DNA from: a virus | Length of the DNA stretch: 55,857 nucleotides | Reading direction: 5' to 3' (one strand) | IMG/VR virus record: IMGVR_UViG_3300010357_001710 | Shown here: positions 13,850-47,250 of the stretch, piece by piece | Numbering within the stretch: the first letter of the stretch is position 1 | Layout of the letters: each line of letters starts with the position of its first letter | The notes under the pieces: model-generated | Database searches by the model: none | Seen by the model: only the letters and a program-made list of their open reading frames with translations | What the model was told of the DNA's origin: nothing | Position numbers and translations under genes: made by a program

Positions 13850-14309
13850 TTTTAATAATCTTTCTGAAGTTATCATGAAAGTAAAGATACAGTTTTATAG
13901 TGTCTTTTATATGCTCACTTTTTTCTTCAAAACCTAAAAATTTCAAACGCTCATCAGTCCAGAATTTTTTTACATTTGGCATTAATGCAATAGGATTATA
14001 ATTATTTTTCTCACATAAGTATTTTAGTACTCCTATAAATTCTACTTCAGGGAAAGTTGAACCCATCTTGAATTTAGATGAAGCATACAATTGATAGCGT
14101 TCAAAAATAACAAAATCGAAAGTATAACCTATTGGACCACCACAAATAATTCCTTCTAGCTCTTCAAAAGTTTTTAATTCTTTTGAAAATACTTTAGAAA
14201 AAACATTTTCCTCTTTGTTTATAAGATTTATTTTATTATAAAAGTTATTTGTAGTAAATACAGAGACCCCAGTTGTTACACCGGGGTCAATTACTAAAGT
14301 TTTAATCAT
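13836..14309 (-). CDS. RuvC-like Holliday junction resolvase
   Basis: N-terminus 'LVIDPGVTTGVSVF' (RuvC-type catalytic Asp motif). ~157 aa. Confidence 0.55.
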   Translation of the reverse strand: MIKTLVIDPGVTTGVSVFTTNNFYNKINLINKEENVFSKVFSKELKTFEELEGIICGGPIGYTFDFVIFERYQLYASSKFKMGSTFPEVEFIGVLKYLCEKNNYNPIALMPNVKKFWTDERLKFLGFEEKSEHIKDTIKLYLYFHDNFRKIIKNESL

Positions 14310-14848
14310 AAAGCAAATTCTTTTCTATTTTTTATAAAGAAAGTCATTTTTTGAATCGCTGATTGTCTTAATTGATAAAAATCATATTTGCTAATATTAT
14401 TAGTTTCCATTATTTCTTCTCTATTTATGTCTTCTAAATAGAATCCAGAAATAACTTTAAATTCTAAAGGGCTCAATAGTAACATAATAGATTTTACATC
14501 AATAGAATTTTTAGTTGTTGCTAAAAATATATCAATGTCAAAATTTTCTTCAGAAGAATGTGAAAGTTCAGTAATCGATTTCTCAGAGTCTGTTGCTGAA
14601 AAAACATTATTTGAGCGAAAAATGCTAAGTAGAGAAAATTTTATCTTAGTATATGCATGAGTAGAAAATTTTGTCCCATTTTCAGGGTCGAAAGTTCTAG
14701 CTGCTTCACATAATGCAGAATAGGCAGTAGATAAAAGTTCATCATACTCACACCAACTGTGCTTAAATGATGAAGCTAATTTTCTAGCTAAGTTTAAATT
14801 TTCTTCAACTAATTTATTTCTTTCTTTTATGGTAAGATTGTTTGTCAT
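14306..14848 (-). CDS. Sigma-70 family RNA polymerase sigma factor (phage-encoded)
   Basis: Region 2-like 'YDELLSTAYSALCEAARTFDPENGTKFSTHAYTKIKFSL' and region 4-like 'LSPLEFKVISGFYLEDINREEIMETNNISKYDFYQLRQSAIQKM'. SD of the GAAAGGCGGAA class. Confidence 0.85.
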   Translation of the reverse strand: MTNNLTIKERNKLVEENLNLARKLASSFKHSWCEYDELLSTAYSALCEAARTFDPENGTKFSTHAYTKIKFSLLSIFRSNNVFSATDSEKSITELSHSSEENFDIDIFLATTKNSIDVKSIMLLLSPLEFKVISGFYLEDINREEIMETNNISKYDFYQLRQSAIQKMTFFIKNRKEFAL

Positions 14849-17347: not shown

Positions 17348-19894
17348 CAATAACATTGTACCAACATCGACTATTTCACTTTGTTTTTTATTCATAAGCA
17401 ATAAAAATTCTTCTTGATAAACTACGCCAATCCAAACATCTTCTGGAAACTCTTTTTTGCATCTAATTTTTGTGTCGCATAAATCTGAAAAAGATGCTTT
17501 AGCTCTTTTGCTAAATTTTATTTTTGAAACAGGTTTTCTTGTGTTTAAAGCACACCAATAAGTATAAGAATTATACATATCTGCTTTTGTTATTACATGT
17601 TCTGAGTTAGTTTTCTTTATATTGTTAAAGAAAAAATCAATCACAGAATCATTTTCTTTTTTATAATTTTCCTTGTATTCTGAATGATGTTTAGTAGAAA
17701 TAGTAAAGTCTTTATTTTTAAGAAGTCTAAAACCACCTTCAATAGCTCTATTTAAAAATGTGCTCATAGCTTCTTCAGTTGATATTTTTTCAAATAAGTT
17801 AACGTCACGAGTTTCTTCATTAAATTTTGTCAAGCATTGAACTATTTGAAGACGATTATAAAAAGCTTCGTCTCCACCGTTTGTTAAAATCGGGAGTTGA
17901 TTACATGAAAAAATTAAATGAGCGGTGTTTTTAAATTGGAAAGGTTTTAGAAATTTTCTATCTGCGGTTATTAAATCGTCACCAGTCAATGATTTAATCA
18001 TACCTGTGGCTCTTACATCTTCTTCATCCAGGTCTGCAGAAATATTAGCTAGCTTTCCAAAAAGATTAGAAGCTGAAAATCTATCCCCTGCTAATCTTTG
18101 TAAAGTATCACTAGATACGTTATCTTCTCCAAGAAATTTTATAAGTAATCTTAAAAATACAGATTTTCCGTTATCTCCGGAGCCGACTAAAACTAAAAAT
18201 CTTTTTAAATTCATTTTTCCAAGAAGAATGTACCCAACATTTTCCCACATAGTATACACTTGTTCTTTTGTTTTAAATACTTCTTCCATAAATTTATCTA
18301 GTCTTTCACACTTTGCGTCTTTATTAAAATTAGCATTTATTTGATACAAGAACTTTATATTAGTATTATGTGGCAATAATGAATTAGATTCGAAGTCAAA
18401 AATTCCATTTTTTAAATTTACTTTCATTGGAACTCTTTCAGCTTCTTTTGCATTAATACTTGTTTGGATTTTTATAAATTCCAAAGTCTCATCTGAGTAT
18501 TTTGAAGACCACTTATCATCTAAAATTTCTTGTATAGATTTTTCAATTTGCATATTTACATTTTCTGTATAATATCCATCTTTATATGTGTAAATTCTTT
18601 GATGAATGGTTATTATTTTATACTTATCGATAAGATATTCTGCTAATTTTACAGGAAGAAATGAAGCTACTCCATTTTTTCCAATCAAAAAAAACTGAGA
18701 ATATTTTTTAGATTTTACAACTTCTGCATTTACATGATAATTTAACTCTTTTTTCAAAAGAGCATTAGTCAAACCAAATTTTTTACCAAACCTATTATTT
18801 AGATTTTGTAATATTAAATCCCGTTCGAAAGAACTTTTTTTAGCTATAATAGCTAAAATCTTATCAAGAATATAAAATCTTTCTTGCTCAGTATTTGAAT
18901 TATCTAAGTTTCTGTAAAGAGTTTCTAAAGAAAATACTTTACTTTTAGCATTAATTAAAGTGTATTTTTTTAAATAAGCTTCTCCTCTATCTTTGAATTT
19001 TTGACTAACATCAAAATTATTTTCAAGAAATATTTTAAAGCATTCAAATACTTCTCTATCATTTAACCCAGCTTCATATAATTTACAAGCTATTGAAAAA
19101 TCATGAGAACTTCTATCGCCATCAAATCTTTCTGGAATTTGTTTTGCGTCATTTATAACATCAAGAGAGACTAATAATTTTATATCATCTAATGAAAAAA
19201 TTCTAGAAGGTAATAAAGAGAAGTCATCTAAAATAATTTCATCTATGCTTTCTATTTTAATTGAATTAACAGAAGAATGAATAAGTTCTAATGAATAAAA
19301 ATTTGAATTCACTGAATCTATTTTGCAAAATTTCATGTTGTCTGGATTCTTAATATTTCTAGTACCAGGTACTCTTAAGATTCTTGAAAGATTAAAAGTA
19401 GAATCTGCGTTAACTATTCTATGAACTCTTTTTGAAATCATAAGAGCTTTATCAAAGTTTTCATCTTTACTAACGTTAAATACAGAATCTAAAATCCAAT
19501 AAACATGATACCCATTTCCTGAATCAATTATCATAGTTGGAGTAAGTGGAAAGTTTGTTATTGATTTCTTAGCTTCTACTTTCTTTTCTTCTGCTGTTGT
19601 CCCTTTAAAATCTTTTGCATCTATGTCTGCCCAGAAAAGTGCAACTTCTTTTATATCTGTATCAGAAGAATCTGAACTTCCGTTTCTTGGTTGAATACCA
19701 CAAAAAATATTATATTTTCCCTCATACTTCTTTATGTACTTTAAATATTCTTCTTTCTCTTCTATCTTAAAAAAGTTTCTAAGAATATTTTTCTCGTTAT
19801 CTATTAGTCTAAATTCTATATATTTAGATTTGTCTACTTTTTCAAAAATCTTATCGAAAAATAAGATTGCGTCTTGCTCTTTGATAATAATCAC
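17345..19894 (-). CDS. Bifunctional primase-polymerase / D5-P4-type replicative helicase
   Basis: N-terminal prim-pol motifs 'LFWADIDAKD' and 'DSGNGYHVYW'. C-terminal P-loop 'LVGSGDNGKS' with D5_N-like context. Confidence 0.85.
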   Translation of the reverse strand: MIIIKEQDAILFFDKIFEKVDKSKYIEFRLIDNEKNILRNFFKIEEKEEYLKYIKKYEGKYNIFCGIQPRNGSSDSSDTDIKEVALFWADIDAKDFKGTTAEEKKVEAKKSITNFPLTPTMIIDSGNGYHVYWILDSVFNVSKDENFDKALMISKRVHRIVNADSTFNLSRILRVPGTRNIKNPDNMKFCKIDSVNSNFYSLELIHSSVNSIKIESIDEIILDDFSLLPSRIFSLDDIKLLVSLDVINDAKQIPERFDGDRSSHDFSIACKLYEAGLNDREVFECFKIFLENNFDVSQKFKDRGEAYLKKYTLINAKSKVFSLETLYRNLDNSNTEQERFYILDKILAIIAKKSSFERDLILQNLNNRFGKKFGLTNALLKKELNYHVNAEVVKSKKYSQFFLIGKNGVASFLPVKLAEYLIDKYKIITIHQRIYTYKDGYYTENVNMQIEKSIQEILDDKWSSKYSDETLEFIKIQTSINAKEAERVPMKVNLKNGIFDFESNSLLPHNTNIKFLYQINANFNKDAKCERLDKFMEEVFKTKEQVYTMWENVGYILLGKMNLKRFLVLVGSGDNGKSVFLRLLIKFLGEDNVSSDTLQRLAGDRFSASNLFGKLANISADLDEEDVRATGMIKSLTGDDLITADRKFLKPFQFKNTAHLIFSCNQLPILTNGGDEAFYNRLQIVQCLTKFNEETRDVNLFEKISTEEAMSTFLNRAIEGGFRLLKNKDFTISTKHHSEYKENYKKENDSVIDFFFNNIKKTNSEHVITKADMYNSYTYWCALNTRKPVSKIKFSKRAKASFSDLCDTKIRCKKEFPEDVWIGVVYQEEFLLLMNKKQSEIVDVGTMLL

Positions 19895-19905
19895 TCTCCT
19901 AGCTG

Positions 19906-20748
19906 TTAAATATTTTCTAATACAAAATTGACTAATTTATCTTGGCACAATTCTTTCTTGTTTTCTTCTATGTATTTTATAAAACCTTCGTGCAGTATTA
20001 AAGAAGTGTTGCTTTCTGGTAACTTAAATTCTTTTATGCTATCATCATTAGCCATAGTATCTAGCAATTTAAAATCAGATTCATAAACATGTAATGACCC
20101 AACATTGTGGTATAGTTCTCCAAGAATCAATTCTGGGTACCAATACTTTAAAACTTTGAAAGCTTCTTTTTGAACTAATATAAAAAATGGAATGTCATAA
20201 GTCATTCCTTTTATTAAGTCTTGAGACCGCATATTTGAAATAAGAATAAGTTTATTGTTTCTTATGAATAATTGTAAATACATTGTGCAAACAAAATCTT
20301 TGTTCTCAAAGAATTGATGAGAAGAATTATTGAAATGCATAATAGCTTGTCTTGAATTCTTGTCTTTTATTAAAGAATTAATAGCCCAAAAATATTGCGT
20401 ATTTCCAAAAATATTTTCTTCTTTAAATATTAAAGCTCCATAATAACTATGAATAGGTTGCAATTTTAGCCAAAATTTTGAATATTTAGAAATAAACTCT
20501 AAAGAAGTAGAACCACCAAAATACCAGCACGTTTCTGCACAAAGATATTTTAAAATGTTTGGTCTGCTATTCATAGAAAAAAATTCTTCTGTAGTACGTC
20601 TTATACACAAATTTGCATTTATAGTTTCAATTACTTTGAAATCTCTTATTTTTACTTCGTTAAATTCCAACTCTTGAAAATAATTATGATTATTGAAACA
20701 CAGCAATAAGTTTGAGTAAAGAGAAGCAAAAGTATTACTTTCAATCAT
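19906..20748 (-). CDS. ThyA-fold pyrimidine C5 hydroxymethylase/methylase, most like T4 gp42 dCMP hydroxymethylase
   Basis: 'DFVCTMYLQLFIRNNKLILISNMRSQDLIKGMTYDIPFF' has the catalytic Cys and RS.D. It carries Asp in 'TYD' where ThyA has Asn in 'PFNIASY'. 'NVGSLHVYESDF' resembles gp42 'NVGSLHVYSRHF' (recalled from memory). Confidence 0.7.
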   Translation of the reverse strand: MIESNTFASLYSNLLLCFNNHNYFQELEFNEVKIRDFKVIETINANLCIRRTTEEFFSMNSRPNILKYLCAETCWYFGGSTSLEFISKYSKFWLKLQPIHSYYGALIFKEENIFGNTQYFWAINSLIKDKNSRQAIMHFNNSSHQFFENKDFVCTMYLQLFIRNNKLILISNMRSQDLIKGMTYDIPFFILVQKEAFKVLKYWYPELILGELYHNVGSLHVYESDFKLLDTMANDDSIKEFKLPESNTSLILHEGFIKYIEENKKELCQDKLVNFVLENI

Positions 20749-20755
20749 ACTTATT

Positions 20756-21355
20756 CTATCCTATTAATCCAGAATATTGTGATTTCATTATGTAAATTTC
20801 TATTAGAGATACAACTTCTTCTTTACTTGTTTTATTCAAATCAAAAAGCATAATTTTTTTAGACAAGCTTTTAGTTAAATTGATAATTGAAAACTCTTCA
20901 TGTTCTTGTATCATTTCTAAATTGTAATCTCTTATCAATTCTTGTTCTTCTGTTGGCTTAATACTTTTAAACAAACAAGTTAAATCATACAATTTATCAT
21001 AAGCATTCAAAGTGTCTATAAATTTATGTAATAAATTAAAGTAGTCTTTTTTCAAAGAATCAGAAAGTTGCGTATGATTTATATAATTTGTGAAATAAAA
21101 AAAGCAATCTACTAAAGTTCTATCACTTAAGTAAACTGTGTGCTTTTTTGATTCAAAAATTTTACTCAATCTGTCTTTAAATATTTTTTCTTGAACTTCT
21201 AAATTCATTGATGGGTTTTTTCTAAGTTCATTTATATCTTTAATCATTTTTCGTATCGGCTCTTCAATAAGAACAAAATCTTTATTTTTTTCTATAAGAG
21301 CTCTCATAATAGTAGATTTTCCACTATGTGATGCACCAGAGAATCCTATAATCAT
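20756..21355 (-). CDS. P-loop (deoxy)nucleoside-monophosphate kinase (putative)
   Basis: 'IIGFSGASHSGKST' P-loop at the extreme N-terminus and 'LSDRTLVD'. Sandwiched between the hydroxymethylase and the dCMP deaminase. Confidence 0.5.
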   Translation of the reverse strand: MIIGFSGASHSGKSTIMRALIEKNKDFVLIEEPIRKMIKDINELRKNPSMNLEVQEKIFKDRLSKIFESKKHTVYLSDRTLVDCFFYFTNYINHTQLSDSLKKDYFNLLHKFIDTLNAYDKLYDLTCLFKSIKPTEEQELIRDYNLEMIQEHEEFSIINLTKSLSKKIMLFDLNKTSKEEVVSLIEIYIMKSQYSGLIG

Positions 21356-21786
21356 ACTCCCTCCTGTTTGTATACTAGTATTCCACTATTTCTAAACATT
21401 TTTGTTGTTTCATTTCCATGATAGTCTTGTAAAAAATGAACTTCAGAAATTTCTAGATTTATTAATAGTCTTGCGCATTCTATACATGGAAGTGTAGTAC
21501 AATACAAAAAAGAACCTTTCAATGAAATCCCATGTTTTGCAGCTTGAACAATAGCGTTTTGCTCCGCGTGTACCGCATGACATAAATGTAAATCTTTTCC
21601 AGATTCTTCTCTAACGCAATTTTCACAATGCTTAAAGCCAATAGGAACTCCGTTATAACCAGTTGCCACTATGTTGTCATCTTTTACAAAAACTGCTCCT
21701 ACATTTCTTCTTAAGCAAGTAGAACGCTGAGCAACAGTCATAGCTATTTTCATAAAATATTGTTCTTTACTCATTCGAAAACGCAT
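21352..21786 (-). CDS. dCMP deaminase (zinc-dependent cytidine/deoxycytidylate deaminase family)
   Basis: 'HAEQNAI' and 'PCIECARLL' zinc-binding motifs. 144 aa. Confidence 0.9.
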   Translation of the reverse strand: MRFRMSKEQYFMKIAMTVAQRSTCLRRNVGAVFVKDDNIVATGYNGVPIGFKHCENCVREESGKDLHLCHAVHAEQNAIVQAAKHGISLKGSFLYCTTLPCIECARLLINLEISEVHFLQDYHGNETTKMFRNSGILVYKQEGV

Positions 21787-22235: not shown

Positions 22236-22676
22236 TTAATTTGTACTACCAAAACCACCAGAACCACGTTGACTTTCTTTATCAAATAACTCAGATTCAT
22301 GTGTTTGTAATAACTCAACTGAATTAAAATCTAATAGTATGAATTGAGCTATTTTATCACCAGCTCTTATTTCAGCAACTTTATTACTATAGTTTATAAG
22401 ATGAAGATGTATTTCTCCTTGATAGTCTGAATCAATTACACAAGCGCCTATAATAAGTTTTTTCTTTGTGGAAACCCCACTCTTATTGAATGAAATTAAA
22501 ACTTTTCCTTCTGGAAGATTCATTTTTATCCCAGAGGGAATAAGAATGTCTTCACCAGACATTAAAGCTACATCAATAAAATCATTTGGCACAAAGAAAT
22601 CAATACCTGCTGAACCAGTTGTTGAAACAAGTGGACTCTTAACATCTCTAACTTTTGCAAAATTAATTTTTTCCAT
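22236..22676 (-). CDS. dut: dUTP diphosphatase (trimeric dUTPase family)
   Basis: 'GSAGIDF', 'GACVIDSDYQGEI', 'RGSGGFGSTN'. ATG 22676 has an AAGGAG RBS. The track start at 22697 is a GTG within that RBS. Confidence 0.9.
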   Translation of the reverse strand: MEKINFAKVRDVKSPLVSTTGSAGIDFFVPNDFIDVALMSGEDILIPSGIKMNLPEGKVLISFNKSGVSTKKKLIIGACVIDSDYQGEIHLHLINYSNKVAEIRAGDKIAQFILLDFNSVELLQTHESELFDKESQRGSGGFGSTN

Positions 22677-22911
22677 CAATAATCTTCTCCTTTTCACTTC
22701 TTATTTTTTCTTTTATAGCTTCTAGCATATTTAAATCTTCATAAATAGTGTATAAATTTTTTGCATACCCTATTGACAAAAATAAACACAATATTCTTAC
22801 TATTAAGTCAGTGTGTTCTAAAAACAATATTGAAGTAATAATAAAAAATACAAAACTAAATAATAATTTTATTCTAAGCTGTTTTTTCAAGTAAGAATAC
22901 GTTTCTTTCAT
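22663..22911 (-). CDS. Small membrane protein
   Basis: 82 aa with hydrophobic segments (LLFSFVFFIITSILFL, ILCLFLSIGY). Confidence 0.45.
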   Translation of the reverse strand: MKETYSYLKKQLRIKLLFSFVFFIITSILFLEHTDLIVRILCLFLSIGYAKNLYTIYEDLNMLEAIKEKIRSEKEKIIDGKN

Positions 22912-24844: not shown

Positions 24845-25999
24845 TTATTCTCCTTTCTTTAAAGTGTCATTAATATTATTGTAAAGTAGATAACTTTCGT
24901 CAAGTAATTCTATCTTGTTATTAAGAAAATCTAAAACAAAATTAGTATAATCTGCAGCTGTATTTACAGGAACATTTTGAAAAACATGATGAAAATCTTC
25001 ACTTTGAAGTTTAAAATCATTTGGCAAAGACATTAATATCATAGTATCTCTAACACTTAAATATCTTTCTTCAATAGGATGAATTATTCTACAATTCTTT
25101 CCGATAATTGCATTTGTGTAATCTGATACTATGATTGGAGAAGGATTCCAATAACCAAGTCCATCATCTAATTTAGAAAGTATTCTTTTGAATCTTCTTA
25201 ACTCGTTATCATTTAAGTATTTTTTCAAAGTAGAAAGATTTTTTTTCTTTACACAGTAAGCAAGAATTGAATTTGTATTTTTGCCTTCAAGAATTATTTC
25301 TCTATAATTTTTTCCAAGTTCTTTTAGTGCATATAAGTAATAGCCATTTTCTTTTAGTGTATCTTTAACAATAAAATCATCAAAGTGCTTTAATGACGAG
25401 TAATTTTTTACACTTAGAAATTCATCAAGCTTAGTATAGTGTTTTTTTATTTGTTTTGGTTTTGGAATTTTATTACCCTCAAAAAAGAAATAAAAAGTTC
25501 TTACTCTATTTTGAGGTACTCCATGATTTAAAGTGCTAGTTTTAATTACAAGAAAAGTATACCCATTAGCTTTTCCAATTCTTTGTAATTTTTCTCTAAC
25601 AGCTTTTCCAGCGTCTGTAAATAAGTTAGGTGCGTTTTCTCCAAACATTACTCTTGGTTTTATAGTAGAAAGAACATAAGAAGCAGTTTTATACATCCAT
25701 TGATTTTGAATTGCTTCTTCCCCTCTACTTTTTTCTCCATTATCTTTAGAAGAGTTTAACATACTTAAACCTGCACAAGGACATACAGAAGATACAAAGT
25801 CAATTTTTTCTTTGAAAGAATATTTCTTTTCATCTAGTAAATAATAAGGAACGTTCTTAAGGTATTTAACTAAATGATTGTCATTATTGGAAAAAATAGA
25901 ATATGATAATAAACACTTTGGTTTTACTTTTGTAGCTTTTATATTTCCAAGAGTCATTCCACCTATCAATGGAATTATAGTTATATAGTTATACCCCAT
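24845..25999 (-). CDS. DNA (cytosine-5)-methyltransferase
   Basis: Motif IV 'CPCAGLS', VI 'ENAPNL', VIII 'QNRVRTFYF', X-like 'QNVPVN'. Motif I is degenerate ('PLIGGMTLG'). Confidence 0.75.
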   Translation of the reverse strand: MGYNYITIIPLIGGMTLGNIKATKVKPKCLLSYSIFSNNDNHLVKYLKNVPYYLLDEKKYSFKEKIDFVSSVCPCAGLSMLNSSKDNGEKSRGEEAIQNQWMYKTASYVLSTIKPRVMFGENAPNLFTDAGKAVREKLQRIGKANGYTFLVIKTSTLNHGVPQNRVRTFYFFFEGNKIPKPKQIKKHYTKLDEFLSVKNYSSLKHFDDFIVKDTLKENGYYLYALKELGKNYREIILEGKNTNSILAYCVKKKNLSTLKKYLNDNELRRFKRILSKLDDGLGYWNPSPIIVSDYTNAIIGKNCRIIHPIEERYLSVRDTMILMSLPNDFKLQSEDFHHVFQNVPVNTAADYTNFVLDFLNNKIELLDESYLLYNNINDTLKKGE

Positions 26000-27159: not shown

Positions 27160-28578
27160 TCAATTGCATAAAGAATTTGTCTTATATTTGTGGTTTTCTA
27201 TTGAATGAATTTTCTTTTTAAAAGAACCGCGCATTATTTCTGCTTTTTTTACTTCTGACACGAAAGTTTTTAATTCTTCTTTTGAAAGGTCTAAAGCAAC
27301 TTCATCAAAATGAACCCATTCATGGTCTTTATATTTCACATGCTTTTCAATCATTATTGCTCCAGCTGCTATAGCCATCATAGAACCAATACTTCCTAAG
27401 TCATGTCCAGAATAACCCGGTACAATATTTTTCATTCTACTTTTTAATGCAAATAAGATATTTATAACTCCAGTATTTATTTCTTCTAAAGGCGTTGGAT
27501 AACTAGAAAGAGTATGCAAAATAAATAAAAATCTTTTTTCTGAATAGAACTTATCAACAATTTCACTTATGTATTCTTCTCCTGTTGCACCAGTACTAAT
27601 AATTATGTCTTTGTGATAATTTTTGCTAACATACTCAATAAAATTTTTATGATTTGAAACTGTAGAAGGAATTTTAACTAGCTCAAGATTAAAAGTAGAG
27701 TTCATTAAATTAAAAGAAAATTTGTCTAAGATTGTACTAAACCACAAAATATTTTCTTTTTTGCAGAATGAGTCAAATTTCTTTAAATCATCTACTGTCA
27801 ATTCAACCCCACGTCTATAATCTCCATAAGTTTTTCCAAACTTAGATTCATATGGGCGTTGCAATTCTTCTTTAGTATAAAATAAATTCACATCTCTTTT
27901 TTGAATTTTAACTAAATCAGCTCCCTGTTCTGTAGCTAATTTTGCTATTTTACATAGTAAATCAATGTCTCCTAAGTGGTTATTTGTAATCTCTGCTACT
28001 ATTATTACTTCATTATTATTTACTTTCTCATCAATTAATGATTTTATACTTTTTTCTTTTTTAGTATAAAATTCAATATTTTGTTCTTTTATGAATTTAT
28101 TAAATTCTTCTTTTTGTTTTTCAAAATAGACTTTATTGAAGTCTTCAGTATTTATGCTTAATTTATTTGTTGAAGAATCAAAATTATATCCATCAATGTA
28201 TAGTCTCTCGCATCCTAATCCTTTTGCTATCTTTATAGAAAAAATAGCTGGATTTAAAATTAATGATGAGTCTATTAAATCTTCTTCTTCTAAAATTATT
28301 ATATTAGAAGAACTAATTTTATGTAATTTTTTAAAATCTTCTATTAAATCATATGGTATTAAATTTATGATGTTGAAATCTATATCTTTAATACTATATT
28401 TAGACTTAACAATATTAATTATAGTATTTGTTCTAAGGTTTCTATTTAAAGAGTTGTTCACTGTTATACAAAAAGAATTCTGAGCTAGTTCATGTTGTAA
28501 TTCTCCATTTCCAATTATATGGCACTCAGTTGGAAATTGACAATGAATATCTTTTATCTTCTTGCAAATATTTTCCAT
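27160..28578 (-). CDS. Fusion protein: N-terminal GT42/DUF115-like (CMP-sugar transferase-like) domain plus a NeuB-type nonulosonic acid synthase TIM barrel
   Basis: C-terminal ~280 aa: 'VAEITNNHLGDIDLLCKIAKLATEQGADLVKIQKR', 'LWFSTILD', 'VKIPS', 'IIISTGAT', 'LHTLSSYPTP', 'GYSGHDLG..AAGAIMIEKHV'. N-terminus: 'CHIIGNGELQ', 'CITVNN', 'KGLGCERLYIDGYNF', recalling CstII. No SAF domain at the C-terminus. Confidence 0.8.
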   Translation of the reverse strand: MENICKKIKDIHCQFPTECHIIGNGELQHELAQNSFCITVNNSLNRNLRTNTIINIVKSKYSIKDIDFNIINLIPYDLIEDFKKLHKISSSNIIILEEEDLIDSSLILNPAIFSIKIAKGLGCERLYIDGYNFDSSTNKLSINTEDFNKVYFEKQKEEFNKFIKEQNIEFYTKKEKSIKSLIDEKVNNNEVIIVAEITNNHLGDIDLLCKIAKLATEQGADLVKIQKRDVNLFYTKEELQRPYESKFGKTYGDYRRGVELTVDDLKKFDSFCKKENILWFSTILDKFSFNLMNSTFNLELVKIPSTVSNHKNFIEYVSKNYHKDIIISTGATGEEYISEIVDKFYSEKRFLFILHTLSSYPTPLEEINTGVINILFALKSRMKNIVPGYSGHDLGSIGSMMAIAAGAIMIEKHVKYKDHEWVHFDEVALDLSKEELKTFVSEVKKAEIMRGSFKKKIHSIENHKYKTNSLCN

Positions 28579-29200
28579 AGTATTTTTCTCCGTCTATTAA
28601 AACTTTACAATTAAATTGAATTGCTAAATTTATTCCAGCTAAAATATCCCAAGAACATGCTCTAGGATTATAATAATTTTTGAAACTTTTTGTTATAACA
28701 GAAAAAATATTATAAGTTGCACATCCAGTTATTCTATATTCTTCATAATTTTTAGACTCAGTAATAATTTCTTGTAAAGTCATAGAAGAAGATAAAGCAA
28801 CTATTCTACTTTTTTGTTTTGTAGAAATTGTTTTTTCGTCTAATGATGAAAGTTTTAAATTTAATTTTGGAAAATACAATAAAGAATATTCGTGGCTTTC
28901 ATTAAAATAAATTGCTAAACTGAACCCGAAAATAGGTATATTGTTTGCAAAATTTTCTGTACCGTCAATAGGGTCAATTACAATAGTATAAAGGGCTCTA
29001 TTGTTTTTTGTTATTTCTTCTTCTGATATAAATGAAAAATCATCAAAAAAGTGTTTACAAAGTACTTTAATTTTTTTACTTATAAGTTTGTCTATGTCTG
29101 TTACTATTGATTTGTCTTCTTTAATAAAAAAATTTGAAGGTTTTCTTAAATTTTCATCAATAGTTAAAATAACGCTTTGTTCAAAACTATCATAGCGCAT
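28526..29200 (-). CDS. Inositol-monophosphatase-fold sugar-phosphate/nucleotide phosphatase
   Basis: 'IVTDIDK', 'ISEEE', 'VIDPIDGTENF', 'SWDILAG'. ATG 29200 has a GAGAGGTGGA RBS and overlaps the upstream stop (ATGcgctaTGA). Confidence 0.75.
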   Translation of the reverse strand: MRYDSFEQSVILTIDENLRKPSNFFIKEDKSIVTDIDKLISKKIKVLCKHFFDDFSFISEEEITKNNRALYTIVIDPIDGTENFANNIPIFGFSLAIYFNESHEYSLLYFPKLNLKLSSLDEKTISTKQKSRIVALSSSMTLQEIITESKNYEEYRITGCATYNIFSVITKSFKNYYNPRACSWDILAGINLAIQFNCKVLIDGEKYYGKYLQEDKRYSLSISN

Positions 29201-29924
29201 TTGAAAATCCACCTCTCATTTTTTCAACATACATACTTCTTGCTAAAAGAAAATCTTCAATAGTGTCTACATCAATAGAGTCTATAACTCTATTTTCTAA
29301 AAAGTATGGATTTTCACCGATGAAATATCTTCTTTCTAAAAGTTTTTCAAATTTTCCACCATATAGTGCGTTGTTAACTTCAAACACTGGAGAAATGTTT
29401 TGTGTATATTGATGATTCTCATTTGCACAATAATTTACTGTTTTGCCATGGTACCAGAAAAAACCTCTTTTCATAACTCCTGAAATTATAGAATCATAAG
29501 AACCACAAATAACTTCAGAATAATATTTATAAATTGCATCTCTGTATAAAGATTCATCAAACATAGGAGAAGTTGGATAAGTTATTAGTAAGTGTGAAAC
29601 TTTTCTTTTCTTTTTTATTTCTGTAAAAAGATTGTGTAAAAGATCACTAAATTTGATAGAATCATCTGTAAATAGAGTAGTATCTCTAATAATTTGCGTG
29701 CAATTATTTTCATTTAAAGAAAAATCAAAGCTTGTAAGAATATTACTTTTTGGAATACCAGAGTTTATAATTTGATTCATCTTTATTTCTATAAGAGATT
29801 TTTCTCCATAAAATTGTCTTGTGTTTTTTTCTCTTACTCGTGAAGAATTAGACCTCGCTAAAACTAAAATGTAAATTTTTTCTTTTTTACAAATTTTTTG
29901 TACATATTGATAATTAAATATCAT
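29190..29924 (-). CDS. Acylneuraminate/KDO-type cytidylyltransferase (CMP-sugar synthetase, NeuA/KdsB family)
   Basis: N-terminus 'YILVLARSNSSRVREKN' (the ..ARxxS.R...KN signature). ~244 aa, the typical size. Confidence 0.6.
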   Translation of the reverse strand: MIFNYQYVQKICKKEKIYILVLARSNSSRVREKNTRQFYGEKSLIEIKMNQIINSGIPKSNILTSFDFSLNENNCTQIIRDTTLFTDDSIKFSDLLHNLFTEIKKKRKVSHLLITYPTSPMFDESLYRDAIYKYYSEVICGSYDSIISGVMKRGFFWYHGKTVNYCANENHQYTQNISPVFEVNNALYGGKFEKLLERRYFIGENPYFLENRVIDSIDVDTIEDFLLARSMYVEKMRGGFSNAL

Positions 29925-29925
29925 T

Positions 29926-31176
29926 TTAATCTTCCTTTCTAAAAAGAACTGATTCTTTATAAAAAGTATTTTTGTTAGTTTCTTTGTTATTTGTCTTAGT
30001 TACTTTAGAAAGATATTTTAAAAAAATGTTATTTACAAATTCTCCAGTAAAATACTCTTTTTTAAATTGAGAAGAATGAAATTCTAAAATTTGATTGTAA
30101 AATTGTGGATTAGATTCTAAGAAGTTTATTTTCTCAACTAATTCTTTTCTAGAAGATATTCTTAAGTATTCATGAACTGGTTGATTTTTTTGAGAGTCCA
30201 TAGACTTATGATAGAACGGAATTATACCAAAATTAATCATCTTCCAAAATTTTGAAGAAGGAAAACCATCTTCAAAATGAAACATTAAAGTATATTTTGT
30301 TCTATATAATCTATCAGTAGCATCAACCATTGGAAGATTGAAAAAATATTTTTTGTATTGTTCTTCTATTAGTTCTTCACTCCATTTGCCAAGACAATAA
30401 AATGGAATTTTATGCATATATTCTTTTATGATTTTAAATTTCTTTTCTCCAGCAGACCCATTCCCATTTGTGTAGATATCTAAAAAATTTGTTTTCTTAT
30501 ATTTTTTGTAATCATATACTTTTTCTATATCTTCAGAAACTAAAAACCATCTATCATATTCTTCATTAATTATTTGTTCTTTTATAGAAACTAAATCTTT
30601 AGATAAGTATTCTTTTGCAAATTTAGTTTTAACTTCTATATTTTGAGTTGATAAATAAGCTAATGGTCTATGAAATAAATCTCTTGCTGGTATTGGAAAA
30701 TATCTTGGATCTTCACCCATTACAACATACGGTATTTTACTTTCATTTAAAAAGTGAACCATCGGTCCACAATAAAGTTTTGACATGTTTATTACTTTTG
30801 CGATTTCTCCTGATTTTAATTGGTAGCTTTTTTCTGGAATATTTACTTGAGAAACTGGACCTAAGTGAAGATAACCAAAATCTATTGAAACTTTTTTCTC
30901 ATTAAAATAATCTATGATGTAGTTTATTCTGTCATGTTTTTTTGCATCGAAGTCTTTCCAAACGTCAATTACATTATTGTTTGGAAAATATTTTTCTTTA
31001 ATCTCTTTTGAAAGAGAACTAAAGTCATTTGTTCCTATAATGAAGAATTTTTTACTCGGGTTTAGTGCTGCAAGAGTAATTATAAGAGAAGATACTTCAG
31101 AATCTCCAGAATCTATAGTCCATTTATTTCTATTAAAATAGAACTTTTTTCCCAATTTTCCTACAGCTATATTCAT
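29926..31176 (-). CDS. Glycosyltransferase-like protein, possibly T4 beta-glucosyltransferase-like (GT-B)
   Basis: 416 aa. By-eye colinear resemblance to T4 BGT as I recall it ('MNIAVGKLG' vs 'MKIAIINMG', 'MGEDPRYFPIP' vs 'TDIRLPF', 'IYTNGNGSAGEKKF' vs 'IYGGSFRSGQRE', C-terminal 'SSRKELVEKINFLESN' vs 'NNRAELIDRVNELKHS'). Needs a profile search. Confidence 0.4.
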   Translation of the reverse strand: MNIAVGKLGKKFYFNRNKWTIDSGDSEVSSLIITLAALNPSKKFFIIGTNDFSSLSKEIKEKYFPNNNVIDVWKDFDAKKHDRINYIIDYFNEKKVSIDFGYLHLGPVSQVNIPEKSYQLKSGEIAKVINMSKLYCGPMVHFLNESKIPYVVMGEDPRYFPIPARDLFHRPLAYLSTQNIEVKTKFAKEYLSKDLVSIKEQIINEEYDRWFLVSEDIEKVYDYKKYKKTNFLDIYTNGNGSAGEKKFKIIKEYMHKIPFYCLGKWSEELIEEQYKKYFFNLPMVDATDRLYRTKYTLMFHFEDGFPSSKFWKMINFGIIPFYHKSMDSQKNQPVHEYLRISSRKELVEKINFLESNPQFYNQILEFHSSQFKKEYFTGEFVNNIFLKYLSKVTKTNNKETNKNTFYKESVLFRKED

Positions 31177-31201
31177 AAAACCTCCGCTTTCTTATAAGTA
31201 T

Positions 31202-31231
31202 ATTATTGCGAGTGTATGTAAAAAATGGCTA
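31202..31231 (-). promoter_or_regulatory. Class-II promoter candidate (TAGCCA-N18-AATAAT) for the sugar-modification operon
   Basis: Minus strand: TAGCCAttttttacatacactcGCAATAATAT, 24 nt upstream of ATG 31176. Confidence 0.4.
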
Positions 31232-31240
31232 AAAAAATTT

Positions 31241-31359
31241 AACTTATAGGTATTTAATAACATAGAGCGTCTGTATACCAATTTGTATACCAATTTCTGA
31301 GCTCAAAAATGATATAACTTATAGCTATTTAACAACATAGATCATTCTGTATACCAATT
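31241..31359. repeat. Iteron region: ~44-bp direct repeat (31241-31283 and 31316-31359), each ending in TGTATACCAATT, plus an extra tandem copy at 31284-31296
   Basis: 'aacttataggtatttaataacatagagcgtctgtataccaatt' vs 'aacttatagctatttaacaacatagatcattctgtataccaatt'. TGTATACCAATTT occurs at 31272-31284, 31284-31296 and 31348-31359. Confidence 0.85.
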
Positions 31360-31485
31360 GATACCTATTTTGCACCGGAGAGCCTATATATTTCTTTTTT
31401 ATTTTATATATTTCTTTTTCTTACTGATTAAATAGAAAAAACATATCAATTGGTAACATTGAAGCAGGAGAATAACTTAGACTAG

Positions 31486-31498
31486 AAATTGGTATACA
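31486..31498. repeat. Inverted copy of the TGTATACCAATT iteron
   Basis: 'aaattggtataca'. A degenerate inverted copy, 'atcaattggtaac', lies at ~31445-31457. Confidence 0.75.
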
Positions 31499-31547
31499 AA
31501 AGGATATACAAAATTCCCAATCTGGTTAAGTTTACACATATTTCCGG

Positions 31548-31770
31548 GTACTTTTTAAAAATGGTCTTGATAAAAAGTAGAAATAAAGTACAAAAAAGTA
31601 AATTATAGTACACTTTTTTAAGCTTACTTTTTAAAAAGTACAATTGTCTTAAAAAAGTAAGATTTATATTATTGTTACTTCTTCGTACTTTAATAAAGTA
31701 CAACAAAGTACAAATAAGTAAAAAATACTTTTTTGTACTTCAATTGTACTATTTGTTACTTTTTGTACTT
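31548..31770. repeat. Dense array of AAAGTAC / GTACTTT heptamers (10 exact GTAC cores plus ~10 degenerate AAAGTAA/TTACTTT copies, both orientations)
   Basis: GTAC at 31548, 31588, 31608, 31638, 31685, 31698, 31708, 31735, 31746 and 31765, each flanked by A3 or T3 runs. No credible ORF. Confidence 0.85.
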
Positions 31771-31774
31771 TTAC

Positions 31775-40815: not shown

Positions 40816-41020
40816 ATTTCTTTCTTCAGTGCGAAAGGCGAATAACTCACTGAAGATTTAACAAAGAGAAAGGCGAATAACCTTTGTTAAAAGAATAATT
40901 CTGTTTGGAGGGAAAGCATTTAACTTTCCATTGCCCCCACTTTTCAAGCTGCAACTTCGCGCAAAAAGTTTTTAAAAGCTTTACTAGGCAAGAGTGTCCT
41001 ACACTTAGACGACTCCAAAA
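40816..41020 (-). ncRNA. Candidate structured non-coding RNA downstream of tRNA-Glu (three hairpins, two with identical 14-nt loops)
   Basis: Hairpins at 40907-40938, 40858-40890 (TTAACAAAG/CTTTGTTAA) and 40824-40855 (CTTCAGTG/CACTGAAG). The loops of the last two share GTTATTCGCCTTTC (minus strand). Locally high G+C. The only ORF has atypical composition. Confidence 0.45.
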
Positions 41021-41091
41021 GCACTCGGAGAGGATCGAACTCTCGATGACGGACTGAAAATCCATTGCCTTTACCACTTGGCTACGAGCGC
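41021..41091 (-). tRNA. tRNA-Glu: tRNA-Glu (anticodon UUC)
   Basis: Hand-folded cloverleaf. Acceptor GCGCTCG/CGAGTGC, D arm GCC-AAGTGGTAAA-GGC, anticodon stem ATGGA/TCCGT with loop TTTTCAG, T arm GAGAG-TTCGATC-CTCTC. CCA is not encoded. Confidence 0.8.
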
Positions 41092-44284: not shown

Positions 44285-44944
44285 ATGAAAATAGTAGAAC
44301 AAAAATGCGAATTAATTACTAAAATAAAAGAAGAAGATATTTGTAAAATGATAGAGTATTGTGGTAGAGTTGCGTATTTAAGTTTTGGTAGAATTTCAAA
44401 AGAATCTTACAAAGATTTTATAAATATGCTTTTACAAAAACAGCATCTTTCTGTGTTTGAGCATATTTCTTTTACTTTTAAAATTACGACAGATAGAGGA
44501 ATTTCTCACGAATTAGTTAGACATAGAATAGCAAGTTTTACTCAAGAATCTACTAGGTTTTGCAATTATAACAATAAAGATATAGAATTCATATCTCCAT
44601 TTACTTTTACTGAAGGGAAAGAAGAACAAGTAGAGTTATTTTTTCAAATGATAAAACAAAGTGAATTTGTTTACAAAGAACTTATAAACTCTGGAATGTC
44701 TCCGCAATGGTCAAGAAGTGTTTTACCAAATTCATTAAAGACAGAACTTTTTATGACAGCTAATTTGCGCCAAATTTTTCATATAGTAAAATTACGCGTT
44801 TCAAAACAAGCTCACCCACAAATGCAGCATTTAATTCGTGAAATGGTTTCTCAATTAAAAGCATATTACCCAATAATTTTTAACTCAGAATACTTTAATA
44901 ACGAAATACTTTGTGGGAGGGAACAAAATGAATTTTTATCTTAA
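44285..44944 (+). CDS. thyX: Flavin-dependent thymidylate synthase ThyX
   Basis: ThyX signature 'VRHRIASFTQESTRF' (RHRxxSxxxxS). 219 aa. Confidence 0.9.
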   Translation: MKIVEQKCELITKIKEEDICKMIEYCGRVAYLSFGRISKESYKDFINMLLQKQHLSVFEHISFTFKITTDRGISHELVRHRIASFTQESTRFCNYNNKDIEFISPFTFTEGKEEQVELFFQMIKQSEFVYKELINSGMSPQWSRSVLPNSLKTELFMTANLRQIFHIVKLRVSKQAHPQMQHLIREMVSQLKAYYPIIFNSEYFNNEILCGREQNEFLS

Positions 44945-45782: not shown

Positions 45783-47250
45783 TTCAGTAAGTTCTCTTGG
45801 CTGGGCTTTTAAAAATAGAATAATAGAAGGTAAGCCTTATACATTAAAAGGTAGAGAGTTTCTTCGTGAAATCTATTCTCATTTTATAAATGAAAAAGTT
45901 AAAAAAGAAGTTGTAATAATGAAAGGTGCGCAGCTTGGAGTTTCTGAGCTTGCTGTGAATCTTGGTTTGTATGTAGTAGACAACATAGGTGACGTTATGT
46001 ATCTTCTTCCAGGGGGTGGAGATGCTAGTAATTTTTCATCTGGGAGATTCAACCCAGCTATAGAAAATTCTGAAAGACTTTCTAATTTGTTCAATGATGT
46101 TTCAAATATAGGGCACAAAAGAACGGGTGAAAGAAATTTATTTGTTCGTGGAGCAAATTCTGAATCTGGACTTCGCTCAACTCCAGTAGATTTTCTTGTC
46201 ATAGATGAATATTCTTTAATGCCAGAACGTTCAGTAGAACTTGCATTAGATAGATTAGATGCAAGTGAGTATAAGTGGATTTTGAAATTATCTACACCTT
46301 TGCTTCCTGAAATGAACATACACTCAGCATTTTTACAATCAGACCAAAGAGAATTTTTTGTAAAATGCTCAAAATGCGGTTTAGAGCAACCAGTAGATTT
46401 TTTTGAAAATATATTTTTAAACCATGAAAAAGAATCTTATTTTTATGGTTGCAAAAAATGTAAAACAGAGCTTAATAGAAATTTTGGACAGTGGAAAGCT
46501 TTAGCTAAGTCTAAAGTTCCGGGTTATCATATTTCTCAAACGTTAAGTCCTACTGTTTCTGCAGACGATTTAATGGATAAATTTGAAAAAACAAAATTTT
46601 CAGCGACAGTAAAAGAAAATTTTTACAATAGCAAGTTAGGATTGCCTTATGTTTGTGAGGGTGACAAACTTTTACATGAAGACTTAGAAGCTGCTAAATT
46701 TGAAGAAGTTAAATTACCTCAAGTTTGTGGTATTGACGTTGGAAGTTATTTACACGTTATTTTTTACGATTCTTTTGGAAATATTTGCAAAGTTCAAAAG
46801 TATAGAGACTTTGCTGAAGTAGAAAGAATAATTTTACAGTCTGGAATTACTGTTGCTGTTATTGATGCGATGCCAGAAACTAGAAAAGCTAGAGAATTGC
46901 AAGAGTCTTTAAAAAAGAATTGTAAAGTTTTTCTATGTCGCTATGTAGATAATTCAAAAGCAGAACTTAACTTTACAGAAAATGAAGACTCTCAATTTGT
47001 TACTGCAGATAGAACTTCTATTTGCGATGCTATTGTTGGAAGATATAAGACAAAGACTATTAAAATTCCTGGTACTGTAGATGAAGAATTTTGTAATCAA
47101 TTAAAAGCACCAATGAGAACAATTGTTGATGGTGTTCCTAGATATGTTGAAGTTGGTGCTGACCATTATTTCCATGCTAACGTATATGCAGAAATTGCTT
47201 ATTCTTATTACAAAGACAAATTAAGAACACCAAGTTTGAGGAGATTATGA
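45697..47250 (+). CDS. Terminase large subunit, GpA (lambda-like) family
   Basis: 'VVIMKGAQLGVSELAVN' (GpA-type P-loop region), 'DFLVIDEYS' Walker B, and a zinc ribbon 'CSKCGLEQ...CKKCKTEL'. The start is uncertain and overlaps the upstream ORF by 86 nt. Confidence 0.8.
   Translation: MKKSKMNSLETLSSENLLNHIKNASKLIDSVSSLGWAFKNRIIEGKPYTLKGREFLREIYSHFINEKVKKEVVIMKGAQLGVSELAVNLGLYVVDNIGDVMYLLPGGGDASNFSSGRFNPAIENSERLSNLFNDVSNIGHKRTGERNLFVRGANSESGLRSTPVDFLVIDEYSLMPERSVELALDRLDASEYKWILKLSTPLLPEMNIHSAFLQSDQREFFVKCSKCGLEQPVDFFENIFLNHEKESYFYGCKKCKTELNRNFGQWKALAKSKVPGYHISQTLSPTVSADDLMDKFEKTKFSATVKENFYNSKLGLPYVCEGDKLLHEDLEAAKFEEVKLPQVCGIDVGSYLHVIFYDSFGNICKVQKYRDFAEVERIILQSGITVAVIDAMPETRKARELQESLKKNCKVFLCRYVDNSKAELNFTENEDSQFVTADRTSICDAIVGRYKTKTIKIPGTVDEEFCNQLKAPMRTIVDGVPRYVEVGADHYFHANVYAEIAYSYYKDKLRTPSLRRL

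Follow-up and report, generated by a model that had tools for sequence, protein, structure and literature searches.

Results

A four-gene block predicted to supply a sugar acid for DNA

The virus genome IMGVR_UViG_3300010357_001710 (IMG/VR), analysed here over its 55,857 nucleotides (the window), carries between positions 27,160 and 31,176 four consecutive minus-strand genes for a glycosyltransferase (GT), a cytidylyltransferase, a phosphatase and a NeuB-type synthase. Comparison of these genes with their relatives makes it reasonably probable, in our judgement, that the phage decorates 5-hydroxymethylcytosine (hmC), made before replication, with a nonulosonic acid of its own making, probably similar to 3-deoxy-D-glycero-D-galacto-nonulosonic acid (Kdn). 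The initial annotation of this DNA had proposed such a route, from synthase, phosphatase and cytidylyltransferase to a transferase acting on hmC-containing DNA. It is the best-supported explanation, given a GT that resembles the β-glucosyltransferase (BGT) of phage T4, the DNA-metabolism contexts of the block, and the residue signature of T4 gp42 in a thymidylate synthase (TS) homologue of the same genome.

The window is an essentially complete phage genome of ~55.87 kb, with a GC content of 24–34% along its length; the same genome is present in two public contigs with different start points. All four open reading frames (ORFs) of the block were found. The GT-B glycosyltransferase (29926..31176, minus strand, 416 aa) is T4 BGT-like and is predicted to glycosylate hmC in DNA, with a cytidine monophosphate (CMP)-sugar made by the cassette as predicted donor. 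It is followed by a cytidylyltransferase of the CMP-nonulosonate/CMP-Kdo synthetase type (29190..29924, minus, 244 aa; Kdo, 3-deoxy-D-manno-octulosonic acid), by an IMPase-family sugar-phosphate phosphatase (28526..29200, minus, 224 aa from its ATG, with an alternative GTG start at 29212) and by a 472-aa NeuB fusion protein (27160..28578, minus). The genes are separated, in this order, by a 1-nt gap, an 11-nt overlap between cytidylyltransferase and phosphatase, and a 53-nt overlap between phosphatase and NeuB fusion. This tight packing is operon-like, and the run of consecutive, partly overlapping genes described initially was recovered with exactly matching coordinates. The gene order recurs in three independent metagenomic contigs, L003, L093 and L099 (L-numbers label the compared contigs and loci), at 41–58% amino-acid identity, which on sequence comparison is far beyond chance. 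In a search of PHROGs, none of the four proteins gave a match.

The glycosyltransferase resembles T4 BGT and belongs to a phage family

At the sequence level, the 416-aa GT matches GT-B families marginally (PF13524, E=0.04), and its initial GT-B-like assignment stands by virtue of its structure model. We built an AlphaFold model on 24 homologues (pLDDT 90) and compared it to the PDB with Foldseek. The four top matches are all T4 BGT (1j39, 1nzd, 1bgt and 1qkj), aligned across both Rossmann domains with E values of 1.6–3.4e-7, a probability of 1.0, TM scores of 0.46–0.58 and 11–13% identity; the GT4 enzymes MshA and BshA come next. BGT, against which the initial annotation had proposed checking the protein, is thus the top solved match. 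In BFVD, a match named ‘DNA beta-glucosyltransferase’ reaches a TM score of 0.81 to the model. The same database also holds, at rank 7, a 545-aa protein of an uncultured phage (A0A6J5PJY0), annotated as ‘acylneuraminate cytidylyltransferase’, that matches the GT-B model in structure (E=1.1e-5) and, as judged from the models, may be a natural cytidylyltransferase-GT fusion joining both activities.

The GT family has 24 members among metagenomic proteins and is represented at 79 loci in IMG/VR. These 79 viral loci have DNA-metabolism surroundings, with genes for a gp42-type deoxycytidine monophosphate (dCMP) hydroxymethylase, a dUTPase, a dCMP deaminase and a C5-methyltransferase-family protein. 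The GT-B has no counterpart in the three bacterial surface-polysaccharide loci compared below and is, across these sequences, phage-specific. In a neighbour-joining tree of 84 GTs, clades follow the sugar cassette that lies next to the gene, of which there are three types: a CMP type, an arabinose-like type with SIS isomerase, ribulose-phosphate epimerase (RPE) and kinase/NTP-transferase, and an NDP-sugar type with Epimerase and NTP_transferase domains. That GT phylogeny follows the adjacent cassette is consistent with each GT using the product of its cassette.

Genes for the predicted modified base and the associated C5-methyltransferase

The TS homologue (19906..20748, minus) is predicted to be a dCMP hydroxymethylase of the T4 gp42 type from its PDB matches and its residue signature. 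Its best PDB matches are the CMP hydroxymethylase MilA (1e-14) and T4 gp42 (4.7e-13), with ThyA far behind (2e-4). Its signature residues D143/C146/T147/D169/D177 (E. coli ThyA numbering) are those of T4 gp42, and the same signature is found in the TS homologues of L093, L094, L004 and phage Planchet, hence in all five aligned GT-linked proteins. The T4 gp42 segment used for this alignment, made with E. coli ThyA as reference, agrees with the PDB-search alignment. According to published criteria (Lee et al., NAR 2026, PMC13326640), Asp177 confers cytosine specificity and a D169N change marks 5-hydroxy-dCMP synthases. Since Asp169 is retained, the D169N test is negative, and 5-hydroxycytosine (5hoC), the base of RB69-type phages, was rejected as the modified base.

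Three genes of nucleotide metabolism lie on the same strand as the TS homologue. They encode a P-loop thymidylate-kinase-like protein, a candidate hydroxymethyl-dCMP kinase (20756..21355; PF13521, E=3.3e-8; PHROG 2107 ‘thymidylate kinase’, E=1e-6), a dCMP deaminase (21352..21786; PF00383, E=2.9e-26) and a trimeric dUTPase-family protein (22236..22697; PF00692, E=8.2e-22) that may have dCTPase activity. In addition, a flavin-dependent thymidylate synthase, ThyX, is encoded on the plus strand (44285..44944; PF02511, E=2.9e-45). As ThyX supplies dTMP, the ThyA-like homologue is free for a hydroxymethylase role. The ‘T4-like hmC precursor set’ of the initial annotation is therefore present in its gp42-type hydroxymethylase, Tmk-like kinase, dCMP deaminase and dUTPase, but a dCTPase was not found. 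No Tet_JBP or 2OG-Fe(II) match (TET/5mYOX) was obtained in any scanned ORF of the window, and we rejected for this genome the route to hmC by methyltransferase and TET, as it has no detectable TET-type dioxygenase.

A C5-cytosine DNA methyltransferase-family protein is encoded at 24845..25999 (minus; PF00145, E=2.2e-15, motifs IV–X only). The initial annotation had listed it as a neighbour of the block. It is indeed adjacent, but it is more than a mere neighbour: members of its family adjoin the GT in 65 of the 79 viral loci, which makes it the most conserved partner of the GT. The protein is 33–38% identical over its full length to the GT-adjacent orthologues in L003 and L004, and further family members are found at L014, L044, L093, L094 and other loci. 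Its catalytic motifs IV, VI and VIII (PC, ENxP, QxRxR) are kept, and its motifs I–III, for S-adenosylmethionine binding, are atypical (‘IPLIGG’, a missing motif II Glu and a family-specific ND.H). The pairing with the GT holds even with pre-replicative hmC predicted and no TET. The enzyme may methylate residual C, or it may have a role other than simple methylation. A homologue is also present in cyanophage S-TIM5, near a TS gene.

Cytidylyltransferase, phosphatase and synthase

The cytidylyltransferase aligns over its full length with TIGR03584 (PseF; E=2.5e-12) and matches the CMP-Neu5Ac (Neu5Ac, N-acetylneuraminic acid) synthetase structure 6ifd (3.9e-4). It is 41% identical to its L093 orthologue and 26% (E=2e-22) to that of L014, which scores above the PF02348 (CTP_transf_3) threshold, at 66.9 bits. 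The NeuA/KdsB-type call made initially is supported by TIGR03584 and these orthologues; on PF02348 the protein itself reaches 19.6 bits, below the gathering threshold of 22.6, and taken alone the call would be weak. The phosphatase was assigned to the IMPase fold both by PF00459 (76.7 bits, E=2.7e-21, above threshold) and by its two metal-binding motifs, DPIDGTENF (DPxDGT) and WDILAG (WDxxAG), in agreement with the initial assignment.

The NeuB-type domain (27160..28005, minus) is predicted to be a phosphoenolpyruvate (PEP)-condensing ulosonic-acid synthase. Residues 213–454 align with positions 3–240 of the 241 positions of PF03102 (150.5 bits, E=6.9e-44, threshold 22.1 bits), and the best PDB sequence matches are PseI (8h2c, 1.4e-21) and SpsE (1vli). 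The motifs VAEITNNH, KIQKR, GYSGHD and IEKHV do not vary within the subfamily alignment and have aligned counterparts in PseI and SpsE; we take their role in metal and PEP binding to be that seen in NmeNeuB structures. Pfam match and catalytic motifs bear out the NeuB-type call. Nevertheless, the protein is well below the equivalog cut-offs for NeuB/NnaB (TIGR03569, 132.9 bits against 399.65) and for PseI (TIGR03586, 111.9 bits against 340.25). It also has no Pfam match to the C-terminal SAF (antifreeze-like) domain: the alignment reaches position 272 of the 329 in the model, with 8 more residues before the protein ends. Both features set it apart as a distinct subfamily.

The first ~190 aa of the fusion (28006..28578, minus) form a domain with a sialyltransferase-like, Rossmann-like fold (GT29/GT42/DUF115 type) in its structure model (190 aa, pLDDT 84). 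Its seven top Foldseek matches in the PDB are all sialyltransferases, including ST8SiaIII, ST3Gal-I and CstII, but the similarity is weak (E 0.03–0.1, TM 0.41–0.48), so that the initial ‘GT42/DUF115-like’ label is plausible and not established. The domain is homologous to that of ~520-aa bacterial NeuB-family proteins, whose motifs GKGPSL and LGFDF are degenerate in the phage copies (GNGELQ, GYNFD). Its only invariant residues are G23, G25, N41, G130 and F133, and no catalytic base was identified. The 286-aa NeuB proteins of L014 and L098 are devoid of this domain, as are the HMGL-type loci described below.

Gene neighbourhoods in related phages

In L003 the gene order is GT, cytidylyltransferase, IMPase, NeuB and C5-methyltransferase, and L099 has the same order with two methyltransferases. 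In L093, GT, cytidylyltransferase, IMPase, NeuB, methyltransferase, TS, dCMP deaminase and dUTPase are all contiguous. L098 combines TS and dCMP deaminase with a separate run of GT, IMPase, NeuB (286 aa) and CTP_transf_3 protein; in L014, GT, IMPase, NeuB (286 aa), CTP_transf_3 protein and methyltransferase are followed by UvsX and DnaB. The initial annotation had proposed looking for co-occurrence of the block with gp42 homologues: the two are contiguous in L093, and a TS gene is also found on L098.

Three other loci, L094 (7650-10379), L096 (5934-8681) and L097 (9329-11591), share the order GT, CTP_transf_3 protein, methyltransferase and gp42-type TS, with intervening genes after the second and third. 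Here, an HMGL-like aldolase/synthase of 511–515 aa takes the place of NeuB and IMPase, and L094 and L096 have an additional small HAD phosphatase. To judge from gene content, a CMP-activated keto-acid sugar for DNA may be reached here by a second route that is not orthologous to the first. Overall, the nine closest long contexts all contain a GT, a cytidylyltransferase and a C-C-forming synthase (NeuB with IMPase in six, HMGL-like in three), and they adjoin genes for a methyltransferase, gp42-type TS, dCMP deaminase, dUTPase or topoisomerase. Wherever NeuB-subfamily copies in phage context lie on sufficiently long contigs (6/6), the GT is adjacent. In the reciprocal direction, scanning IMG/VR for the NeuB subfamily returned L014 as the single contig; the NeuB variant is rare in that collection.

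More distant GT clades have other partners. One has as neighbours a SIS isomerase, a ribulose-P epimerase, a HAD enzyme and a protein of 532 aa, which together make up an arabinose-like cassette. Another is paired with an NDP-amino-sugar set (NTP-transferase, 4,6-dehydratase/epimerase, DegT and APH-like kinase), and DNA polymerase B is encoded beside that set. In a sister subclade (L018, L019, L027), the order is C5-methyltransferase, Tet_JBP, GT and CTP_transf_3 protein. The only cultured carriers of the GT family that we found are the Enterococcus phages Planchet, 9183 and TJE4 and Pseudoalteromonas phage XG4. Planchet (L001 52199-57148) encodes a kinase, gp42-type TS, dUTPase, PNK, two GTs, RNase H and a third GT; XG4 (L002 1-6568) encodes TS, PNK, two GTs and a methyltransferase. 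We found no DNA-modification data in the literature on these cultured phages, 9183 and Planchet included.

Several of these contigs have further features. L003 (96.7 kb) encodes, 4 kb downstream (18032-19922), an HldE-like kinase/nucleotidyltransferase (PfkB and CTP_transf_like) and a GmhB-like HAD phosphatase, and this heptose-nucleotide pathway might add a second sugar. In L096 (12277-13921), the TS homologue contains Hint/intein-splicing and HNH_3 domains, that is, an intein-interrupted hydroxymethylase gene. A eukaryotic-type topoisomerase IB (Topoisom_I_N, Topoisom_I, Topo_C_assoc) is encoded directly upstream of the GT in L094 (4695-6299), L096 (2293-3981) and L097 (6303-7985).

Bacterial relatives of the cassette

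Relatives of the NeuB fusion, hundreds of proteins of ~520 aa, occur in Bacteroidota and Verrucomicrobiota and are 45–51% identical over the NeuB domain. The order CTP_transf_3 protein, IMPase and NeuB fusion is found within capsule/O-antigen loci of Empedobacter (L011 8675-12348), Rubritalea (L012 9379-12261) and Sphingobacterium (L013 8672-12327), near genes for ABC transporters, Wzy and other glycosyltransferases. In two of these three loci (Empedobacter and Sphingobacterium), a GT29-like gene lies 3' of the cassette. The overlap between the IMPase and NeuB genes is also kept (53 nt in the phage, 56 nt in bacteria), and the IMPases of the phage and of the Empedobacter capsule locus share 37% identity (E=1e-41); the phage and bacterial cytidylyltransferases are barely similar. 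Because orthologues with the same fusion and the same overlap occur in bacterial loci, the phage probably acquired the phosphatase-synthase pair, by these sequence comparisons, from a host, as a surface-glycan module of cellular origin. Synteny with host lipopolysaccharide loci, named initially as what would speak against a role in DNA modification, is thus found for phosphatase and synthase, in capsule/O-antigen loci, but the GT-B is absent there.

No NeuC, aminotransferase or acetyltransferase partner lies beside the cassette in the phage loci or in the three bacterial ones. With no amino-sugar enzymes for Neu5Ac, pseudaminic acid (Pse) or legionaminic acid (Leg), the product is more likely a sugar that carries no amino group and derives from a central sugar phosphate; the simplest case would be Kdn made from mannose 6-phosphate (Man-6-P). 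The bacterial cassette seems to encode a nonulosonate pathway, with an IMPase-fold phosphatase, that has not been described before; we found no literature on an IMPase-NeuB cassette.

Other features of the genome

Upstream of the block lies a repeat-rich intergenic region of 598 nt (31177..31774), a candidate regulatory region. It contains four exact copies of TTGGTATACA, with no other exact copy elsewhere in the genome, and two ~36-nt direct repeats, and the word AAGTAC recurs many times in either orientation; this non-coding region is possibly regulatory or origin-like. The promoter that the initial annotation had given the block was not confirmed: a sigma-70 promoter scan returned 46 sites against 38 ± 6 expected, a count that is not significant and is uninformative in DNA of 25% GC, as was the accompanying terminator scan. 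The phage itself encodes a sigma-70 region-2 protein (14306-14848, minus). Its single tRNA, tRNA-Glu(UUC) (41020-41091, minus), was the sole match in an Rfam scan.

Discussion

Proposed pathway

The gene identities, operon structure, conservation, BGT-like fold and genomic association with hmC and C5-modification genes observed here can be assembled into the following scheme. The gp42-type hydroxymethylase and the Tmk-like kinase would allow 5-hydroxymethyl-dC to replace dC, wholly or partly, before replication, and ThyX, dCMP deaminase and dUTPase would keep up the dTTP supply. The NeuB-type domain would condense PEP with a phosphorylated aldose from central metabolism, most parsimoniously Man-6-P to give Kdn-9-phosphate, a nine-carbon acid. 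The IMPase-family enzyme, predicted to be translationally coupled to it, would then remove the phosphate, and the cytidylyltransferase would convert the free acid to a CMP-ulosonate. With this CMP-sugar as inferred donor, the T4-BGT-like GT-B would transfer the sugar onto the hydroxymethyl oxygen of hmC, its inferred acceptor, in duplex phage DNA. The resulting nonulosonate-hmC would be acidic and bulky and could block restriction and other DNA-targeting defences. The scheme assigns no step to the sialyltransferase-like N-terminal domain or to the C5-methyltransferase-family neighbour.

More tentatively, and with less than even confidence, we propose that virion DNA carrying a Kdn-like, sialic-acid-family nonulosonate on hmC represents one branch of an unrecognised ‘CMP-ulosonate’ class of DNA glycosylation. 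In such a class the synthase module would be interchangeable (NeuB and IMPase or HMGL-type aldolase and HAD), with the divergent C5-methyltransferase-family enzyme as invariant partner, whose job is possibly not simple methylation.

Weighing the alternatives

Several points weigh against decoration of hmC with a phage-made nonulosonate. The support for it is all comparative, and the four-gene cassette was not found in cultured phages. Concerning the GT, GT4 enzymes (4.7e-7) come close behind BGT (1.6e-7), and TM scores are low (0.5–0.58). The donor of T4 BGT is UDP-glucose. No donor-specific residues are evident in the GT alignment, whose family motifs are common to clades with different cassettes, and the correlation between clades and cassettes could in part reflect common descent, with 42 of the 79 loci in one lineage. 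As for the base, no MazG, NUDIX or gp56-like match to a dCTPase was found among the scanned ORFs of the window, and the conserved C5-methyltransferase stands beside pre-replicative hmC genes with no step in the pathway. The closest cellular homologues of the cassette lie in surface-polysaccharide loci with GT29-like sialyltransferases, and the low equivalog scores and missing SAF domain mean that the product of NeuB could, judging by these profiles, be another ulosonic acid. Finally, a second glycosyltransferase, a 439-aa GT2-family protein (47247-48566, plus; PF00535, E=1.8e-20; PHROG 13126), is encoded in the head module, between large terminase and portal. Its substrate could be DNA, which would make it a second DNA glycosyltransferase (GT-A type), or virion proteins.

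These points feed into distinct alternatives, two of which keep DNA as the target. A two-step glycan, in which the GT-B places a host hexose (e.g. from UDP-glucose) on hmC and the N-terminal domain caps it with the CMP-activated nonulosonate, would agree with the donor used by T4 BGT, the closest solved relative of the GT. It would also give a role to a domain whose only structural relatives are sialyltransferases, enzymes that normally act on hexose acceptors, and which is fused to the synthase in phage and bacteria alike. We nevertheless consider it unlikely: the structural match is weak (E 0.03–0.1), the conserved residues of GKGPSL and GFDF are no longer present in the phage copies, and the domain is missing from L014, L098 and the HMGL-type loci, though L014 and L098 keep cassette and GT. 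Moreover, the BGT-like GT94 was enough on its own for transfer of a putative Kdo (Pyle, Lund, O'Toole & Saleh, bioRxiv 10.1101/2023.12.21.572611). We assign a similarly low probability to the same pathway logic leading to a product other than a nine-carbon one, in which PEP and a pentose or other sugar phosphate would give a Kdo-like or novel 3-deoxy-2-ulosonic acid. Scores far under the NeuB and PseI cut-offs and the absence of the SAF domain, which shapes the hexosamine pocket, are in its favour, and the replacement of the synthase by an HMGL-like aldolase in sibling phages (with HAD in two of three) suggests a generic need for a ‘CMP-ulosonate’. Besides, the one ulosonate described on 5hmC to date is an adduct of the size of Kdo. 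On the other hand, the GT29-like genes 3' of the bacterial cassette belong to a sialyltransferase family. To our knowledge, every characterised PF03102 enzyme yields a nine-carbon acid, and Kdo-8-P synthases are in another family.

The acceptor might also be something other than DNA, with a captured auxiliary glycan module that sialylates virion proteins or remodels the host surface for superinfection exclusion or immune mimicry. The bacterial surface-polysaccharide loci that hold the closest homologues of phosphatase and synthase, the GT2 gene between terminase and portal, and the absence of all four proteins from PHROG families would fit such a role. However, the GT-B is BGT-like and missing from the bacterial loci, and the block is never in structural or lysis modules: in every context examined its flanks are those of DNA metabolism (methyltransferase, TS, deaminase, dUTPase, polymerases, topoisomerases). 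No flippase, Wzy or lipid-carrier transferase was detected among the scanned ORFs of the 56-kb genome either, and we judge this possibility quite improbable. That the block is a recent, non-functional or decaying passenger is least plausible and hardly credible to us. A cytidylyltransferase just under the Pfam cut-off and degenerate N-domain motifs could hint at decay, but all ORFs are intact with coupled starts, the catalytic motifs of NeuB and IMPase are kept, and gene order persists at 41–58% identity over at least four independent contigs. Glycosylation of hmC with a phage-made, Kdn-like acid is hence the reading we favour.

Significance

Phages classically counter host defences by attaching sugars to hmC, and, as recent studies have shown, the chemistry of such decoration is far more diverse than the glucose of T4. 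If true, the present proposal would add the sialic-acid family to the sugars attached to DNA and provide the first nonulosonate-nucleic acid conjugate, a product that is large, negatively charged and immunologically meaningful. It would bear on evasion of restriction, CRISPR and DNA glycosylases, on the physics of DNA packaging, on sequencing artefacts and on 5hmC-labelling enzymes. It would also illustrate an evolutionary route by which a capsule-locus phosphatase-synthase pair and a cytidylyltransferase were plugged into a phage DNA-glycosyltransferase/methyltransferase chassis, other sugar modules having been swapped in likewise. In addition, the comparison brings to light an uncharacterised NeuB-IMPase pathway in bacteria.

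Comparison with known systems

With the T4 hmC pathway (GT63), the window shares the dCMP hydroxymethylase signature, a dCMP deaminase, a kinase and a post-replicative GT-B. It differs in that no dCTPase was found, in having ThyX in place of Td, in a predicted CMP-ulosonate donor instead of UDP-glucose and in a GT of ~13% identity to BGT; its conserved C5-methyltransferase partner has no T4 counterpart. RB69 and DLP3 make arabinosyl-5-hydroxycytosine with UDP-arabinose as donor (Lee et al., PMC13326640). Like the window, they combine a dCMP modified by a TS homologue with a phage sugar-nucleotide pathway and DNA glycosyltransferases. Their cluster of isomerase, kinase/NTP-transferase and phosphatase is analogous to the cassette of SIS, ribulose-P-epimerase and 532-aa protein beside one GT-family clade. 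In contrast, the TS homologue of the window keeps Asp169, so that hmC and not 5hoC is predicted, and homology between the window GT and the RB69/DLP3 arabinosyltransferases is undetectable.

The block also follows the logic of the 9-phosphate routes noted initially: a sugar-6-phosphate is the substrate of a NeuB-family synthase, and a dedicated phosphatase and then a CMP-sugar synthetase act on the product. Such routes to CMP-Neu5Ac and CMP-Kdn are known from animals (NANS-NANP-CMAS) and from the Kdn-9-P synthase and phosphatase of Bacteroides thetaiotaomicron. Unlike these, the phosphatase of the block has an IMPase fold and not a HAD fold, and its synthase has a sialyltransferase-like N-domain and no SAF/AFP domain. 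The bacterial cassette has an orthologous IMPase (37%) and NeuB fusion (45–51%), with the same fusion architecture and gene overlap. It is accompanied there by a GT29-like transferase in a capsule/O-antigen context, whereas in the phage its companions are a BGT-like GT-B and genes of DNA metabolism.

The nearest precedent is that of Pyle et al. (bioRxiv 10.1101/2023.12.21.572611), who described phage clusters for 5hmC glycosylation and reconstituted methyltransferase, 5mYOX and GT in E. coli. In their subclass III, GT94 alone gave a 477-u ‘5-KdomC’ (putative Kdo), and GT53 with a cytidylyltransferase and HAD/APH gave heptosyl-5mC. The 477 u agrees with the mass of 477.4 calculated here for hm-dC carrying Kdo. 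Their clusters and the window both contain a BGT-like GT-B, a cytidylyltransferase and a C5-methyltransferase. GT53, GT66 and GT94 (419–429 aa) are similar in length to the window GT and have the same Foldseek profile, with 3MBO and T4 BGT on top at ~2e-7 and ~11% identity; it is by these two features that they were compared. No match was found between their supplement and the IMG/VR contig identifiers or GT motifs of our family. Their methyltransferase, 5mYOX and GT architecture is matched by the sister subclade L018, L019 and L027. In the window, by contrast, hmC is predicted to arise before replication through the gp42-type enzyme, with no TET found. The phage would also encode the whole donor pathway, for a predicted nine-carbon sugar, instead of drawing on the CMP-Kdo pool of the host. 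We found no paper in which phage DNA modification is linked to nonulosonic or sialic acids, in line with the initial view that a nine-carbon keto-acid sugar on DNA is undescribed; an eight-carbon one, Kdo, has however already been reported on 5hmC. The novelty of the system proposed here therefore lies not in keto-acid sugars on DNA as such, but in a nine-carbon sugar and a pathway encoded by the phage itself.

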